In this document: positions 361 to 21,289 of the stretch, one piece after another
Layout: each line of letters opens with the position of its first letter
Numbering within the stretch: the first letter of the stretch is position 1
Origin: a virus
Taxonomy: Duplodnaviria; Caudoviricetes
DNA: 27,561 bases
Strand: one strand, 5' to 3'
IMG/VR virus record: IMGVR_UViG_3300043468_000482
Location: 1 to 27,561 of that record
Notes under the pieces: model-generated
Seen by the model: only the letters and a program-made list of their open reading frames with translations
What the model was told of the DNA's origin: nothing
Database searches by the model: none
Translations under genes and position numbers: made by a program

Positions 361-1602
361 TTAACCGGTTACGCGGGTAGCAAGTTCAGGATAGATCGTT
401 GACCAGCCGTAAAGCACGTCAAGACGAGTCGGCAACTGATCGCTGTTAATGTCGTACTGACGTACCAGACGAATAGACAGGCCATCGGCGGAAGCCCGAC
501 CAGCCATGTCAACGCCCTGCGGAAGCAGAAGGTCAGCGGTGCCAAGTGCAAATGCGTCCTTGTGGAACGCCAAAGCGTTAGGAACTGATACAGCCGCGCC
601 GGTAGATCCGGACAATATAGTGGCAGTGCCGGATCCAATGGTGCCGGTGCTGGAAGTCACGTTCTGGAACTGGCCACTGAACACTGGAACAGGGAAGATG
701 CTCAGTGAAGTGCTAGAACCAGGTGCATCAGCGGTAACAACGAAGTTACGCAATGCGCCGGTAGATTGGCGATTCTGCGGGTTGACAGCGTAAACGCCAG
801 GAATCGTGAATACGGTTCCTTTGGTCAGGGTGCCAGAGGTAGAGGAAACCGCCAGCGTGAACGTTGACTGAGCGTTGTTCTGTACGCTTCCGCCAGACTG
901 CGCGGATACAGTGAACGCCGTGGCAGTACCAGAAGTGAAGTTGCCTACGTTTTGATCCATTGCGAAGTTGAAACCTAACGTAGAATCACCCAACGCGCCC
1001 TTGTTGAAGATGCGCGAAATGGTGCCAGCAGGATTAAACAGGTTAGTCAGGCCGCTGACGATGCCAACTTCGATGGTGGGATCAACGATGAAGCTACGAT
1101 CCTCGTCAACCGGAGCGGCTTCTTGATTCAGTCTAGCGCGTGCGTCAAGAATGGCCTTAGTAGCCTGCGCCAAAGTCGGGGTGCCGGTAAGCTGCCCAAC
1201 GGTGCCGGTGAGGTTGTAAACGTTCTTGAACTGCTGCAAACCATCGTAGTCGATTTTGTTTGCAATAGCTGCAACTGCGGGCTTAATGAACCTGTCAGAA
1301 AAGTCTGAGATATTGAGGCTCAAGTCCTGCGTGGTAAACGCCATATCCACACCGAACTGGGTATCCAGCGTCAGCGGAACATAGGTTTCAACTGCGGATT
1401 CAATTTGAAGCGCGGGGCCGGAGCGACCGACATAACGCGGTGGCTTCCTACAGTTTATAGTAGTGCCGATTTTCGCGCCTTCAATAGCGAATTTATTATC
1501 GTATTGACGGTTTACGGCTTTGGTGAAGACTAACTGGTTGGTGAGAACCCGCAGGGCCTCATTAGTAATCATGCTGATAGTCAGCAGATTGTTACTCGCC
1601 AT
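361..1602 (-). CDS. Major capsid protein, P22 gp5 family
   Basis: 413 aa; N-terminal NNLLTISMITNEALRVL..., C-terminal RLDVLYGW; follows portal and scaffold; AGGAG RBS. Confidence 0.93.
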   Translation of the reverse strand: MASNNLLTISMITNEALRVLTNQLVFTKAVNRQYDNKFAIEGAKIGTTINCRKPPRYVGRSGPALQIESAVETYVPLTLDTQFGVDMAFTTQDLSLNISDFSDRFIKPAVAAIANKIDYDGLQQFKNVYNLTGTVGQLTGTPTLAQATKAILDARARLNQEAAPVDEDRSFIVDPTIEVGIVSGLTNLFNPAGTISRIFNKGALGDSTLGFNFAMDQNVGNFTSGTATAFTVSAQSGGSVQNNAQSTFTLAVSSTSGTLTKGTVFTIPGVYAVNPQNRQSTGALRNFVVTADAPGSSTSLSIFPVPVFSGQFQNVTSSTGTIGSGTATILSGSTGAAVSVPNALAFHKDAFALGTADLLLPQGVDMAGRASADGLSIRLVRQYDINSDQLPTRLDVLYGWSTIYPELATRVTG

Positions 1603-8570: not shown

Positions 8571-8719
8571 GTACTCTCAACACGCCGATCACCGACATCG
8601 GCACCAGTACCTAGCCTCTAAAGAGAGGCTAGGGTACTTGGGTACCGGTCTAAGTCGTTGATTTGATCCTTTTTGGTACCCTGGTACCCAACTATCAAAA
8701 AGGGTACTCATGGGTACCG
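8571..8719. repeat. GTAC/GGTACY iteron cluster with long hairpin; candidate replication origin
   Basis: GTAC at 8571, 8607, 8634, 8642, 8676, 8684, 8704, 8714; inverted repeat 8606-8638; immediately downstream of the primase-helicase. Confidence 0.7.
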
Positions 8720-8721
8720 AT

Positions 8722-10752: not shown

Positions 10753-10781
10753 TTGACATGATACGCTGCAACCAGCACAAT
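10753..10781 (+). promoter_or_regulatory. Sigma70-type rightward early promoter
   Basis: TTGACA-17 bp-CACAAT with an upstream A tract; the AAAAAGT(T)GTTGAC context is shared with the promoter at 17893. Confidence 0.7.
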
Positions 10782-10786: not shown

Positions 10787-11067
10787 CACTCCCGAAACTC
10801 AACGGGCGGGAGTGCCGCTAACGCCGGTGCCAGAAGAAAGACTCTGGGAGTGTCGCCGGTGTTAGCAACTAACAACAACACTCCCTACGCCTCTCCACGA
10901 TGCGCACCAAGAGAGTTACTGTTTGGGCAATGTCACGCCGCACCTCACGCGTGATCTGGTTTTCCGCCAAGAAAATTGTCCAGATTGCGCGGGCAAAGCC
11001 CAAAACGTAAGCCGACCGCGTAAGTGTCGGCATCCAACGCTACAACCAGCATTGTGCTGACCGTAGC
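10787..11067 (+). ncRNA. Long structured leader / candidate regulatory RNA
   Basis: Consecutive helices with G-U pairs: 10787-10814, 10817-10866, 10891-10915, 10922-11004 (nested 10948-10991), 11011-11031, 11039-11067. Confidence 0.65.
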
Positions 11068-11086: not shown

Positions 11087-11761
11087 ATGGCTATCAAACT
11101 TAGACGCACCGACGGGTTGTGTGCCAACGGTGTAAAAATTTTAATTTTTGGCGCTGCCGGATCGGGTAAAACCACGTCTATCGCCACACTTCCCGCGCCG
11201 GTTATTCTTTCGGCCGAGGGCGGCTTGCTTTCTCTCGCGGGAGCCGACATTCCGTTCATCGAAATATCTTCAATGGCGGATCTGATGGAAGCCTACACAT
11301 GGCTTACCACCTCATCTGAAGCCAGCGGCTTTGAATCGGTGGCGCTGGATAGCATTTCGGAAATTGCGGAAGTGTGCCTTAACACGGAGAAAAAGGCCAC
11401 CAAAGACCCGCGCCAAGCATACGGCGCGATGCAAGAGCAAATGACTGATTTAATCAGGGCTTTTCGTGACCTGCCTGGTAAGCATGTGCTTATGACGGCT
11501 AAAGTTGAAAAGTCTCAGGATGAAATGGGGCGCATGCTTTACGCTCCGTCTATGCCTGGTCAGAAGTTAGGTCAACAACTGCCCTATTTCTTTGACGAAG
11601 TGCTGGCGCTTCGGGTTGAGCGTGACGCTGACGGCAATACTCAAAGGGCGTTCATGTGCGATTCGGACGGCATGTGGACAGCTAAAGATAGATCGGGCCG
11701 TCTTGAAGCATGGGAAGCGCCGAACCTCAACGACATTATCAATAAAATAGGTGGGAAATGA
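11087..11761 (+). CDS. AAA_24 / Sak4-like ATPase (single-strand annealing recombinase family)
   Basis: AGGAG RBS before ATG 11087; Walker A GAAGSGKT, SAEGG, VALDSISE, YFFDEV, AKDRSG; adjacent DUF669 SSB. Confidence 0.88.
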   Translation: MAIKLRRTDGLCANGVKILIFGAAGSGKTTSIATLPAPVILSAEGGLLSLAGADIPFIEISSMADLMEAYTWLTTSSEASGFESVALDSISEIAEVCLNTEKKATKDPRQAYGAMQEQMTDLIRAFRDLPGKHVLMTAKVEKSQDEMGRMLYAPSMPGQKLGQQLPYFFDEVLALRVERDADGNTQRAFMCDSDGMWTAKDRSGRLEAWEAPNLNDIINKIGGK

Positions 11762-12626: not shown

Positions 12627-12670
12627 CATAACCAACATAGCCAAGGATGGCTTTTATACAGGGTGAGAAC

Positions 12671-14956
12671 ATGAAATACGATGAGTTCATACAACAAAAA
12701 AGACAACATGAAATCACAATTGGACACGCGCCAATTGCGTTAAACAACAACTTGTTTGACTTTCAAAAATATATTACCGAGTGGGCCGTTAAAAAGGGCC
12801 GCGCTGCTATTTTTGCCGACACGGGACTAGGCAAAACAATCATGCAAACGTCGTGGGCCGATGAGGTTGTGCGGCATACAGGGCAACGCGTGTTAATTGT
12901 TGCGCCATTGTGCATCTCGTTACAAACAGTCAACGAAGCTAATAAATTTGGGATTGACATTCAATACTGTCGAAATCAACAACAAATACAAAAAAACATC
13001 ATCATCACAAACTATGAAATGCTTGATAATTTTGACATTTCTACTTTTGGCGGAATAGTTCTTGATGAATCCAGCATCTTGAAAAGCTACATGGGGAAAA
13101 CCAAGCGTGCATTGATTGAGTTGTGTCAGCCGGTGCCGTACCGATTAGCTTGCACTGCTACACCATCGCCTAACGATTACCTAGAACTTGGCAATCATGC
13201 GGAATTTTTGGGGATCATGCCAAGCAATGAAATGATTATGCGGTTTTTCCAAAACGACACGATGGAAGCCGGAGCATATGTGTTGAAGCCGCACGCGGCT
13301 ACTAAGTTTTGGGAATGGCTGGCGTCATGGGCAATGTGCATTAGCAATCCGGCTGATTTAGGTTATGACGGAAGCGCCTACAATTTGCCGTCATTGAATC
13401 AAGAATTTATTAGAATCAACACTGACGACTTGCCGCCAGCCGAAGGGGAATTGTTCAGGAACGTAACGATAAACGCGACTAGTGTACACAAAGAGGGACG
13501 TTTAACGGTTGATAAACGCGCCGTTAAGGTGGCTGAATTGGTCAACAATTCAGATGAGCCATGGCTCGTGTGGTGCAATACAAATTATGAAGCCGATGCG
13601 TTGAAGGGTTTGATTCCTGATGCCGTTGACGTGCGCGGATCGGATACCATTGACAAAAAAGAACAATCATTGCAGTCATTTATTGACGGAAAAACAAGAG
13701 TATTGATTACTAAACCGTCAATCGCTGGCATGGGATTAAATTTCCAGCATTGCAGAAATATGGCTTTTGTTGGTTTATCGTATTCTTACGAAAACTATTA
13801 CCAAGCAATTCGTAGATGTTACAGATTTGGTCAAACTAAAGAAGTTCACAGCTACGTCATGGCCGCTGACTCTGAAAGTTCAATTCTTGCAATTATCAAA
13901 GCAAAAGAACAAAAGCATAACGAAATGAAAGAAGCCATGGTTGAGGCCATTGCAAACTATCACAAGAGAGAAACTCAAATGAACGACGTTGCATACTTTG
14001 AAACTGTTCAATCAGACAATTGGACTGTGCACCATGGCGATTGCGTTCATGTTGCCAAAATGATTGACAGCAATTCTATTGGGTTTAGCGTGTATTCGCC
14101 GCCGTTTCCTAACCTGTATATCTATTCAGATTCAGAATATGACATGGGTAACAGTACCGATGACGGTCAATTTATGGAGCATTACAGCTACCTAGCGGAA
14201 GAATTGCACAGGATAACAAAACCAGGACGATTGACCGCTATACATTGCAAGGATTTGCCGATGTACAAGGGCCGCGATGGTGCCGCCGGTTTGCGCGACT
14301 TTCCTGGTGAAATTATAAAAATGTATGAATCAAAAGGATGGCAATATCATAGCCGCGTGACAATTTGGAAAGATCCTGTGATAGAAATGCAACGCACTAA
14401 AAACCACGGACTTTTGTACAAGCAGTTGTGCAAAGACTCTAGCGCATCGCGTCAGGGCATGGCTGACTACATAATCGTCATGAGGAAATGGGCAGACGAG
14501 GAAGATTGGGAAGCCGTTACGCGAGGCAAAGAACGGTTTTTTGATTACATTGGATCAAGTTATAACGCTCCACAAACAAAAGATTGGGGACGCGCTAGAA
14601 GTGAAACCGAAAAACAAAGATTGTATTCGATTGCTGTTTGGCAGCGTTACGCTTCGCCGGTGTGGTTTGACATAGATCAAACTAATGTGCTGAATTACAA
14701 ATTAGCAAAAGAAAAAAACGAAGAACGTCATATTTGTCCTTTGCAGTTGGACGTGATCGAGCGGTGTGTTGAGTTGTGGTCTAACCCTGGCGATTTAGTA
14801 TTCTCGCCTTTCACCGGAATTGGTAGCGAGGCCTATGTTGCATTAAACATGGGACGTCATTTTGTTGGCGCTGAATTGAAGAAATCCTATTTTGACATAG
14901 CGTGCAAAAATCTTGATTCAGTGAAGTTAAAAGAAAAACAAAAGGATTTATTCTAA
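12671..14956 (+). CDS. SNF2-like helicase fused to a beta-class N4-C/N6-A DNA methyltransferase
   Basis: DTGLGKT, LDESS, TATP, QAIRRCYRFGQ; then GDCV, SPPF (motif IV), HICPLQ, FSPFTGIGSE (motif I). GGTGAG RBS favours ATG 12671. Confidence 0.9.
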   Translation: MKYDEFIQQKRQHEITIGHAPIALNNNLFDFQKYITEWAVKKGRAAIFADTGLGKTIMQTSWADEVVRHTGQRVLIVAPLCISLQTVNEANKFGIDIQYCRNQQQIQKNIIITNYEMLDNFDISTFGGIVLDESSILKSYMGKTKRALIELCQPVPYRLACTATPSPNDYLELGNHAEFLGIMPSNEMIMRFFQNDTMEAGAYVLKPHAATKFWEWLASWAMCISNPADLGYDGSAYNLPSLNQEFIRINTDDLPPAEGELFRNVTINATSVHKEGRLTVDKRAVKVAELVNNSDEPWLVWCNTNYEADALKGLIPDAVDVRGSDTIDKKEQSLQSFIDGKTRVLITKPSIAGMGLNFQHCRNMAFVGLSYSYENYYQAIRRCYRFGQTKEVHSYVMAADSESSILAIIKAKEQKHNEMKEAMVEAIANYHKRETQMNDVAYFETVQSDNWTVHHGDCVHVAKMIDSNSIGFSVYSPPFPNLYIYSDSEYDMGNSTDDGQFMEHYSYLAEELHRITKPGRLTAIHCKDLPMYKGRDGAAGLRDFPGEIIKMYESKGWQYHSRVTIWKDPVIEMQRTKNHGLLYKQLCKDSSASRQGMADYIIVMRKWADEEDWEAVTRGKERFFDYIGSSYNAPQTKDWGRARSETEKQRLYSIAVWQRYASPVWFDIDQTNVLNYKLAKEKNEERHICPLQLDVIERCVELWSNPGDLVFSPFTGIGSEAYVALNMGRHFVGAELKKSYFDIACKNLDSVKLKEKQKDLF

Positions 14957-18422: not shown

Positions 18423-18468
18423 GTAAAACAGCCGGTTCCATATCACCGGCTATAAATGCAAAAAAATG

Positions 18469-18613
18469 GGCGGCTATGCGTGACCATAGATATGACAGTG
18501 AGCCTGTCCGGTAGTTGAGAACCGATAGCTTGAGGCCTCAAAACGGAAATCCCACCGTAAAAATAGGATAGGCACACCGCCGCATACCAAAACATTGTTA
18601 TGTGTTTTGGTAT
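18469..18613 (+). ncRNA. Candidate multibranch structured RNA followed by an 11-bp hairpin
   Basis: GGCGG/CCGCC closing stem, GCCTGTCC/GGATAGGC inner stem, several small hairpins, then ATACCAAAACA/TGTTTTGGTAT. Confidence 0.5.
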
Positions 18614-18637
18614 TTACCTAACGTTAGGAGATACAAC

Positions 18638-19185: not shown

Positions 19186-19361
19186 GTCGCCTGCCAATGA
19201 AGGGGGATTTGCTGGACACCTACGGCCTTTTGATACCCAAGGCCGTTAAACCGGCGCCATGGATACGCGCTATCCGCCGCCGCATTTTGTGGTGGCAAAT
19301 TGAGCGAACTATTAGCCGATTAGATCACTTATTACAAAAGTCTCGGCACATGGAGCCTTGA
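19182..19361 (+). CDS. Small basic hypothetical protein
   Basis: ATGA coupling at 19182-19185; 59 aa. Confidence 0.6.
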   Translation: MSRLPMKGDLLDTYGLLIPKAVKPAPWIRAIRRRILWWQIERTISRLDHLLQKSRHMEP

Positions 19362-19488
19362 CTGTATCTCTGATGCAAGGACACGGATAAGCCAATAGAG
19401 TCCGCACAATCATTGGAGCCAGTCGAGTGCGCTGCGTGAGTCGCAGAAGGTGAGGGGCTGGCAACTTATTTAACCAAGGGGAATACTG

Positions 19489-19851: not shown

Positions 19852-20119
19852 CGGAAAAACCAATCAAGCCACGCAACGTGTATTAGCCGCAATCAATCAA
19901 CTACCTGGCGTTGAAGTGTCAATTCGCAAAGGATTGATTTGTATATCTAAGGATGACTTTTATGTCAGGTGCGTAGTGCCGAGCGGCACCATTAAATACC
20001 CGTCGTACCGGCGACTGTGGGAAGAAAAGCAATGTTCTGTACCAACTAAAGCGTGGCACTTTAATCTGCGCTATGCGGTTTCACAGGCGCTTACGGAGGC
20101 TGATAACAATGCACGTTGA
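19844..20119 (+). CDS. Hypothetical protein
   Basis: ATG 19844 overlaps the upstream stop; the 3' end overlaps the thyX start. Confidence 0.65.
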   Translation: MSNGKTNQATQRVLAAINQLPGVEVSIRKGLICISKDDFYVRCVVPSGTIKYPSYRRLWEEKQCSVPTKAWHFNLRYAVSQALTEADNNAR

Positions 20120-20756
20120 ATTACTAGATCACATGGGAGACGATAGGAGCATAGTTAATGCGGCGCGAGTTTCTTTTGACAAAGAATCTGAATTGGAATT
20201 TGACTGGAATTGGGCACCTATTTTGTCAGAAAAAGACGAGAAGCTTATCCACTACTTAGCAAAACATAAGCATTGGACGCCTTTTGCCCATACCGCACTC
20301 AAGTTCAGGATAACGATGCCGATCTACGTCGCTAGGCAGCTAGCCAAGCACCAAGTTGGGGGCGTGGTGAATGAGATCAGCAGGCGGTATGTGTCAACCG
20401 CGCCTGTGCTTGATGTGCCTACCAAATGGCGTAAAGCCGCAGAGAATGTAAAGCAAGGCTCAAGCGATGAGTTGGTAGAAGTCGATCAGGAACACATAAA
20501 TCAAGCAATAGAAGTGTGTTTGACCACATATGATTATCTCATTACCAGCGGTGTATGCCCCGAGCAAGCGCGTGCTGTTATTCCAGTGTGTTCGGAAACC
20601 ACATGGATTTGGACAGGTTCATTGGTGTTTTTTGCTAGAGTTTGTAAGTTGCGGCTTGATCCTCACGCACAGAAAGAAACGCGCGACGTGGCGCAAGCAA
20701 TCAGCGCGTTAATAGAGCCATTGTTCCCCGTAAGCTGGGCGGCACTGATGGCTTAG
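20109..20756 (+). CDS. thyX: FAD-dependent thymidylate synthase
   Basis: GGAGG RBS; MGDDRSIVNAARVSF, HWTPF, ARQLAKH...NEISRRY, PEQARAVIP, LRLDPHAQKE. Confidence 0.95.
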   Translation: MHVELLDHMGDDRSIVNAARVSFDKESELEFDWNWAPILSEKDEKLIHYLAKHKHWTPFAHTALKFRITMPIYVARQLAKHQVGGVVNEISRRYVSTAPVLDVPTKWRKAAENVKQGSSDELVEVDQEHINQAIEVCLTTYDYLITSGVCPEQARAVIPVCSETTWIWTGSLVFFARVCKLRLDPHAQKETRDVAQAISALIEPLFPVSWAALMA

Positions 20757-20822
20757 GTTTAATGCCGCCCTTACCTATTTTAACGGGAGTATTGGAACTA
20801 CTGGGGCGGCTCCCATTCGCTC

Positions 20823-20843
20823 GCCAGCCGCGTTAGTGCTGGC
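20823..20843 (+). promoter_or_regulatory. Second copy of a conserved 21-nt hairpin (first copy at 11011-11031)
   Basis: GCCAGC-CGCGTTAGT-GCTGGC versus GCCGAC-CGCGTAAGT-GTCGGC. Confidence 0.65.
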
Positions 20844-20864: not shown

Positions 20865-21179
20865 ATGAACGACAGAGAACTATTAGAACTGGCGGCGAAA
20901 GCTGCGGAAATAAGTGCGGATTATTGGACGGTTGACGGTTGGAACCCCCTATATGACGATGGTGACGCTTTTCGCCTTGCGGTGAAGCTTTGGATAGACG
21001 TTTCTTTTCCACCCTACATGATGAAGCATGACCGCCCAGTTGTTCATGCCGGTAAGTATTGGGACAACAGCGATGATTGCTGGTATCCATTTGAAGAATT
21101 GCGAGACATAAACCCCTACGCCGCAACTCGTAGAGCTATAGTCAGAGCCGCTGCCGAAATTGGGAGGGGGATGAAATGA
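20865..21179 (+). CDS. Phage protein (ABA-sandwich / NinX-like)
   Basis: GAGGT RBS; DRELLELAAKAA, WNPLYDDGDAFRLAVKL, ATRRAIVRAAAEIG. Confidence 0.75.
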   Translation: MNDRELLELAAKAAEISADYWTVDGWNPLYDDGDAFRLAVKLWIDVSFPPYMMKHDRPVVHAGKYWDNSDDCWYPFEELRDINPYAATRRAIVRAAAEIGRGMK

Positions 21180-21289
21180 ACGATACTATTACGTCTTTAT
21201 TAGGAGCTGTATTCCTTGGTGCGTTAACTGGCGCTTTTGCAGGAGCCGTGTACGTAGTCGTTAAATTTTTCGTATGGTTGATTTCATGA
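21176..21289 (+). CDS. Small membrane peptide (37 aa)
   Basis: Not in the ORF track; GGAGG RBS, ATGA overlaps at both ends; MNDTITSLLGAVFLGALTGAFAGAVYVVVKFFVWLIS. Confidence 0.7.
   Translation: MNDTITSLLGAVFLGALTGAFAGAVYVVVKFFVWLIS

Follow-up and report, generated by a model that had tools for sequence, protein, structure and literature searches.

A 26-nt hairpin that occurs twice in the phage DNA analysed here is a real, conserved phage RNA motif that is apparently undescribed so far. The motif comprises CGUAA, a G-N4-Y stem of six covarying base pairs and a near-invariant 9-nt loop, CGCGUNAGU; upstream of CGUAA there is no further conservation. Among its possible roles we favour that of an RNA decoy titrating a protein of the host, most probably one involved in anti-phage defence, and we give this reading slightly less than an even chance of being correct.

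The window, by which we mean the whole stretch of 27,561 nt, covers part of the genome of a tailed phage resembling P22. Its minus strand encodes capsid, scaffold, portal and terminase, and a plus-strand early operon, from which the primase diverges, encodes Sak4, SSB, helicases, a Cas4-type nuclease, thymidylate synthase and small unknown genes. One helicase (12647-14956) is fused to a DNA methyltransferase domain, and a homologue lies downstream of the hairpin in locus L523. Nested long inverted repeats between the primase and RusA genes (8575-8720) are possibly a replication origin or terminator, and a long intergenic stretch with several predicted hairpins (18428-18615) was found, among the compared loci, in one relative only (L158). 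The two copies and the features discussed with them are:

11006..11031, plus strand: copy 1 of the motif (CGUAA, 6-bp stem, 9-nt loop), unit 5 of the early leader array
19432..19446, plus strand: a separate conserved hairpin with a 5-nt UGAGU loop atop a longer stem, not a motif copy
20073..20756, plus strand: thymidylate synthase gene (phrog_85), upstream of copy 2
20818..20843, plus strand: copy 2 of the motif, with a degenerate 5' flank (CGCUC), at a junction between variable genes
20865..21179, plus strand: gene of unknown function (phrog_5086), downstream of copy 2

The initial annotation had described the pair as two 21-mers, and these were found with the sequences it gave at 11011-11031 and 20823-20843. 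Stem pairs 4 and 5 are indeed exchanged on both sides between the copies, the loops are identical at eight of nine positions, and both copies are intergenic and on the sense strand; their predicted folding gives z of about -2.8 and -3.0. The description of both as lying shortly upstream of a ribosome-binding site fits copy 2, which ends 21 nt before the ATG at 20865 and has a Shine-Dalgarno-like GAGG 8 nt downstream, better than copy 1, because a gap of 55 nt that contains another hairpin separates the end of the latter from the Sak4 ATG. The hairpin at 19432-19446, which had been taken for a related copy, is real and shows compensatory changes in the relative L086, but it is rejected as a family member since a 33-copy covariance model did not match it among 18 window matches (E up to 10). 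That model recovered only copies 1 and 2 in the window, the next match scoring 9.6 bits; copy 1 scores 44.6 bits with covariance model R1, in whose training set it is included. The intergenic region around the 19432 hairpin (19340-19465) is itself conserved and structured, again with compensatory changes in L086, and just upstream of copy 2 a further hairpin (20764-20810) carries TAACGGG in its loop, like leader unit 1.

A comparable hairpin pair (6 bp, 9-nt loop, loops alike at eight of nine positions) arose in 4 of 300 dinucleotide shuffles of the window; despite this, a chance origin is ruled out by pattern scans outside it. Each scan of IMG/VR left a different part of the motif free. With two stem pairs free, 31 of the 61 distinct matches had Watson-Crick pairs at both; freeing the 3' arm gave all six pairs in 20 of 30, and freeing the four inner pairs gave pairing there in 32 of 38. 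When the loop was free, 9-nt-loop matches either departed from CGCGTAAGT by at most one change (8 of 17 and 9 of 10) or did so at four or more positions. A metagenome scan gave full pairing in 14 of 108 among the matches listed. These pattern scans found further copies with a covarying stem beyond the window.

Alignment A2 contains 36 rows, some of them related and five uncertain (L026, L050, L074, L259 and L475); L024, L033 and coding-context matches were omitted as probable chance, and L499, L546 and L556 are treated as candidate members only. In A2, 99.3% of cells are paired and five stem pairs change on both sides, which was matched by none of 500 shuffles. Covariation support is limited to the lower six pairs, which close the 9-nt loop. 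Two upper pairs (G-U and C-G) closing a GUNA tetraloop are predicted by folding, but they show no two-sided change, are broken in the loop variant and were rejected; an alternative register scores similarly. A kissing-loop role for the CGCG palindrome was likewise discarded, as a CGGG variant breaks it. The G-U pairs seen on the sense strand fit an RNA. The covarying stem, the fixed loop and the 5' CGUAA bear out the earlier view of a structured RNA element that is probably bound by protein. Rfam 15 gave no family over 11006-11031 or 20818-20843 in the window at E<=5, none over copy 1 at E<=10 (326 nt) and none at the hairpin of 17 loci at E<=1. No description of the motif was found in the literature covered; subscription papers and supplementary motif catalogues lay outside that scope and may hold one.

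By our grouping, the carriers of the motif fall into at least 17 lineages of phages, prophages or metagenomes, two Bacteroidota prophages among them. Three of 36 genome matches look real, the rest being mostly chance: a Mu-like prophage in Niabella, a prophage in Paraflavitalea and a CRISPR spacer in a Chloroflexota genome. Four complete distant phages have one copy each. No hairpin match was obtained in 400 further Bacteroidota or 401 Gammaproteobacteria genomes, 151 Pseudomonadota genomes gave only weak matches (27 bits or less), and 50,697 records of cultured phages held no meaningful match to either copy. A host copy beside a toxin gene was not found with exact or one-mismatch patterns in the genome samples. 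Metagenome copies in L496 and L499 follow stop codons among non-phage genes. In L499, an IS1595 transposase lies close to an acidic 202-aa protein (831-1439, minus strand) that has its own promoter and no Pfam match and that ends at a terminator and the hairpin copy.

A tie to the Sak4 or phrog_5086 families was rejected, as the hairpin is kept by close relatives only: Sak4 relatives at about 75% identity have leaders without hairpin or array, and distant homologues of the phrog_5086 gene are without the hairpin. In all-against-all blastp of 14 records or prophage stretches from 11 carrier groups, protein clusters were shared by three groups at most. This makes a shared phage regulator unlikely, although blastp could miss a short diverged one, and points to a host partner. 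No transcript over the hairpin was seen; 5% of the words were present in a freshwater RNA run, whose contigs span units 1, 2 and 4 in the leader of a relative but miss the hairpin and cannot serve as proof of transcription.

Copy 1 belongs to a leader of about 300 nt that lies between Sak4 and a sigma-70-like promoter. Linkers rich in A and C separate its six structured units, of which copy 1 is the fifth:

10753..10781, plus strand: sigma-70-like promoter (TTGACA, 17 nt, CACAAT), a consensus match only, kept in 10 of 10 leaders compared
10787..10814, plus strand: leader unit 1, an 8-bp hairpin with a conserved YAACGGG loop end
10817..10866, plus strand: leader unit 2, a long hairpin with a 6-nt bulge
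10880..10916, plus strand: leader unit 3, an orphan abiF-type antitoxin RNA motif, optional among relatives
10926..11001, plus strand: leader unit 4, a branched or long hairpin with a variable top
11039..11067, plus strand: leader unit 6, a hairpin between copy 1 and the ribosome-binding site
11087..11761, plus strand: Sak4-like ssDNA annealing protein (phrog_124, E 1.8e-58), the first gene past the leader

The promoter is predicted to drive the leader and the early operon. Single units are gained and lost one by one among relatives, and in several of them Sak4 is replaced by another gene; copy 1 also occurs in relatives whose flanking units and genes differ. Units 1, 2, 4 and 6 belong to no known family.

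Unit 3 matches the abiF RNA family (Rfam RF03085) at 27 bits, under the gathering cut-off of 37, and is present in 5 of the 10 leaders compared. At least 119 viral stretches of IMG/VR (78 distinct contexts) contain its core, with varying outer stems. None of 49 phage records with this core (15 of them at least 90% complete; 50 of the at least 119 loci submitted) had an Abi_2 gene over the cut-off, and none of the window proteins scanned, from a partial genome, was annotated as Abi_2. Among 401 Gammaproteobacteria genomes, six contain the core, and in four of these an Abi_2 gene lies downstream, at 14-17 nt in three (full genes) and at 432 nt in one. The abiF RNA is described as neutralising its toxin in C. 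difficile (10.1101/2025.04.15.648962), and a lone phage abiF RNA is mentioned for cyanophage S-CREM1 (PMC9964418). Given these precedents and the core directly upstream of host Abi_2, the most plausible reading of unit 3 is a putative orphan antitoxin RNA of the AbiF type. The abiF motif is borne by the unit at 10880-10916, a neighbour of the hairpin; the hairpin itself has no similarity to abiF RNA. The abiF motif is found in 1 of 35 hairpin carrier records and weak hairpin matches in 1 of 49 abiF carriers; the two RNAs travel together only in the window's clade.

For the hairpin, the position of the unit in a row of structured modules, including a stand-alone antitoxin RNA, argues for a decoy role. 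The early promoter would transcribe the leader with the hairpin unit, which may then be released or displayed from the early transcript. The loop and the 5' CGUAA would be presented to a host protein that binds them, and titration of this protein, most likely part of an anti-phage defence, would benefit the phage, a role comparable to that outlined for pseudo-ToxI of phage PhiTE (PMC3475682). The decoy reading is supported by a fold that is kept when the stem is left free and by the kept loop, by the spread of the hairpin in unrelated phages, by its neutral position and by its nature as a removable unit. Counting against it are the co-occurrence with abiF being limited to one clade, the steady distance of distal copies to start codons, as expected of a cis element, the rarity of CCA near the stem and the lack of a host copy beside a toxin gene in the genomes searched. 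Few cases of RNA-based counter-defence are known, and since this short, synthesisable RNA is common to unrelated phages whose hosts belong to several phyla, its target in the host is likely to be widespread. The same leader would supply the orphan AbiF antitoxin RNA of at least 119 viral records, and its other units are possible baits for RNA-controlled defence systems.

What follows the hairpin varies between unrelated genes, a promoter and a tRNA-like RNA. In another phage family, outside the window's clade, the hairpin follows a stop codon and precedes a promoter or gene; nearly all copies of that family (L437, L441, L449, L481) have a second conserved module upstream, with a 5-bp stem and a 14-nt loop. 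In RNA arrays of Bacteroidota prophages and phages (L289, L310, L249), the hairpin is closely preceded by a further common short motif, GATGA/AATGA-CAGA. A tRNA-like RNA begins 3-6 nt past the stem in seven lineages, compared with 1.1% at random positions; two of these calls were confirmed by ARAGORN or Rfam and the rest were made by a heuristic that fires at 138 of 12,600 random positions and gave one false call on a CRISPR repeat. The tRNA-like RNAs of L262, L451, L505 and L516 have normal acceptor stems and T-loops and enlarged or odd D and anticodon arms, and that of L262 is overlooked by ARAGORN.

These contexts bear on the main rival reading, possible but less likely than a decoy, that the hairpin is a cis-acting processing or stabilising signal. 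A host nuclease would cut at or near the single-stranded CGUAA, and the hairpin would protect or define the end of a neighbouring mRNA, tRNA or small RNA. Consistent with this, the hairpin is always on the sense strand and at unit boundaries, it keeps a fixed gap of 5-6 nt ahead of most tRNA-like RNAs, distal copies lie at a steady 13-31 nt before many start codons, and several copies have U-rich tails. However, protective stems do not need an invariant loop, the L078 leader works without the hairpin, and a general signal would be expected in host chromosomes, where it was not found (the 400 Bacteroidota and 401 Gammaproteobacteria genomes). If the hairpin were such a signal, it would still be a new phage RNA motif doubling as a gene-exchange hot spot.

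In this phage group, distal copies are also crossover points for the gain and loss of single genes. The window's clade has up to three distal copies with one gene after each (567-1000 nt apart in L163), and at least 11 different genes lie downstream of copies in the clade. L156 has two copies 609 nt apart; the 5' flank of copy 2 in the window matches that of the first and its 3' flank that of the second, and the gene between the two is absent from the window. L243 shows a fusion of a full hairpin with a look-alike half site, and the intervening genes are deleted; in the window, the look-alike of the hairpin 3' half lies inside a small ORF (21218-21240), the point of the L243 fusion. The motif might then be mainly a cassette-boundary repeat, its copies kept for recombination, perhaps helped by Sak4, that shuffles accessory genes like PeSL in T4-type phages. 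Exact exchange of flanks at the hairpin, the tandem copies of L163, the variety of downstream genes and the PeSL precedent (PMC2839356) agree with this. As the sole role it is nevertheless improbable, since the four complete distant phages have a single copy and loop and stem are conserved in single-copy lineages; in addition, stem covariation and sense-strand G-U pairs indicate selection on the folded strand, not on identity.

Copy 1 has the same six stem pairs as the start of the acceptor stem of E. coli thrU. A G1-C72-type pair is present in 35 and a C2-G71-type pair in 34 of the 36 A2 rows, G1 and partly C2 being fixed by the search patterns; both acceptor pairs are listed in the tRNA-Thr identity set of PMC9976931. 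Four of 15 stem types from the unbiased scans equal a Thr acceptor hexamer, versus 4% of 585 control hairpins (p ~0.002, post hoc, with similar z for Leu, Gly and Trp), and six equal any acceptor hexamer of 120 tRNAs from four genomes, versus 9% of control hairpins. The loop and the 5' flank CGUAA both read NGU-AA, and one loop variant there gives GGU. The likeness to tRNA-Thr and to the thrS operator, as sketched in PMC9976931 and PMC11088916, lies in the G1-C and C2-G pairs, the NGU-AA loop and, for 4 of 15 types, a stem equal to Thr acceptor strands. In contrast to these RNAs, no more than 6 bp separate the acceptor-like from the anticodon-like features of the hairpin, the loop closed by covarying pairs has 9 nt in place of the 7 nt of a tRNA-Thr anticodon loop, and only 5 of 29 copies have a CCA no farther than 5 nt from the stem. 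Together, the features are suggestive of a tRNA-Thr mimic, an idea that was formed post hoc and, although the best lead to a partner, is a lead only.

According to the accounts in PMC12409363 and 10.1101/2024.07.05.602228, tRNA-Thr is the target of AriB and of FaRel2, respectively; against an AriB link, AriB prefers UAAU and needs distal contacts. A broader form of the decoy reading would be that phages carry modular RNA-decoy libraries in early leaders and tRNA clusters, here an orphan AbiF RNA and a 26-nt tRNA-Thr mimic that jams a tRNA-targeting toxin (AriB or of the FaRel2/CapRel type) in hosts of several phyla. This extension is speculative and, taken as a whole, unlikely.

The same likeness could also reflect a translational operator bound by host threonyl-tRNA synthetase, resembling the E. 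coli thrS leader and tying the downstream gene to threonine supply. The CGU to GGU change in the clade variant connects both Thr anticodons, a second CGUAA lies 5' of the stem, distal copies abut Shine-Dalgarno sites, and the thrS operator is described as having two anticodon-like hairpins (PMC9976931, PMC11088916). We consider such an operator highly improbable, as the thrS leader folds with a 7-nt loop and not one of 9 nt, many copies precede tRNAs or promoters, and the downstream genes are unrelated to threonine.

The boxB-like antitermination site or operator of the initial annotation, read by a phage-encoded regulator and defining a regulon, is the least probable role of all: copy 1 does lie in the promoter-proximal leader of a 10-kb operon and some tails (GCACTTTAAC) resemble boxA, but copy 1 is without a boxA-like tail, the motif precedes tRNA-like RNAs, promoters or unrelated genes, the distant phages hold single copies, and the leaders of the 75%-identical Sak4 relatives are without the hairpin. 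A lambdoid nut/boxB is a single site near the promoter that includes boxA and is recognised by an N-type phage protein; distal tandem copies and copies upstream of promoters are unlike it, as is the lack of a protein common to the carrier phages in blastp, a method that may overlook short diverged regulators.

Among other known systems, integron attC sites have paired R boxes and the type I-E CRISPR repeat mimic (Racr) is a full repeat with a 3' handle; neither was found, with flanks judged by eye and no CRISPR repeat family in the Rfam scans. Bacterial Y RNA is characterised in PMC4201824 by a GNCGAAN(0-1)G motif and a nearby Ro60 gene. The hairpin resembles a Y RNA or Ro60 ligand in a bulged C, C-G and G-U, but this candidate was rejected because GNCGAAN(0-1)G is absent from A2; a TROVE domain occurred in none of 35 carrier records and in one of four genomes, far from the hairpin. 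The Aca-bound 5' UTR hairpins outlined in PMC13551039 are likewise covarying phage hairpins of about 20 nt upstream of small genes, whereas the motif is not directly at a transcription start, has no shared regulator gene and occurs in tRNA arrays.

Closer likenesses are to PeSL cassettes and to pseudo-ToxI. PeSL, as presented in PMC2839356, is also a repeated intergenic stem-loop at crossover points where accessory genes are gained and lost, and gene exchange of this type between repeats is seen here as the exchange of flanks at the hairpin. A PeSL cassette holds a promoter plus a terminator in its repeat; no promoter- or terminator-like site was called at either copy, and the hairpin differs from PeSL in having no promoter inside the repeat, no consistent U tract, an invariant loop and mostly a single copy elsewhere. 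Pseudo-ToxI of phage PhiTE is likewise a small phage non-coding RNA unit of variable copy number, proposed in PMC3475682 to neutralise a host defence, and leader unit 3 fits the class so outlined through its abiF RNA homology. The hairpin differs from pseudo-ToxI in having no known host antitoxin counterpart and no tandem pseudoknot repeat, and it spans unrelated phages of several host phyla.
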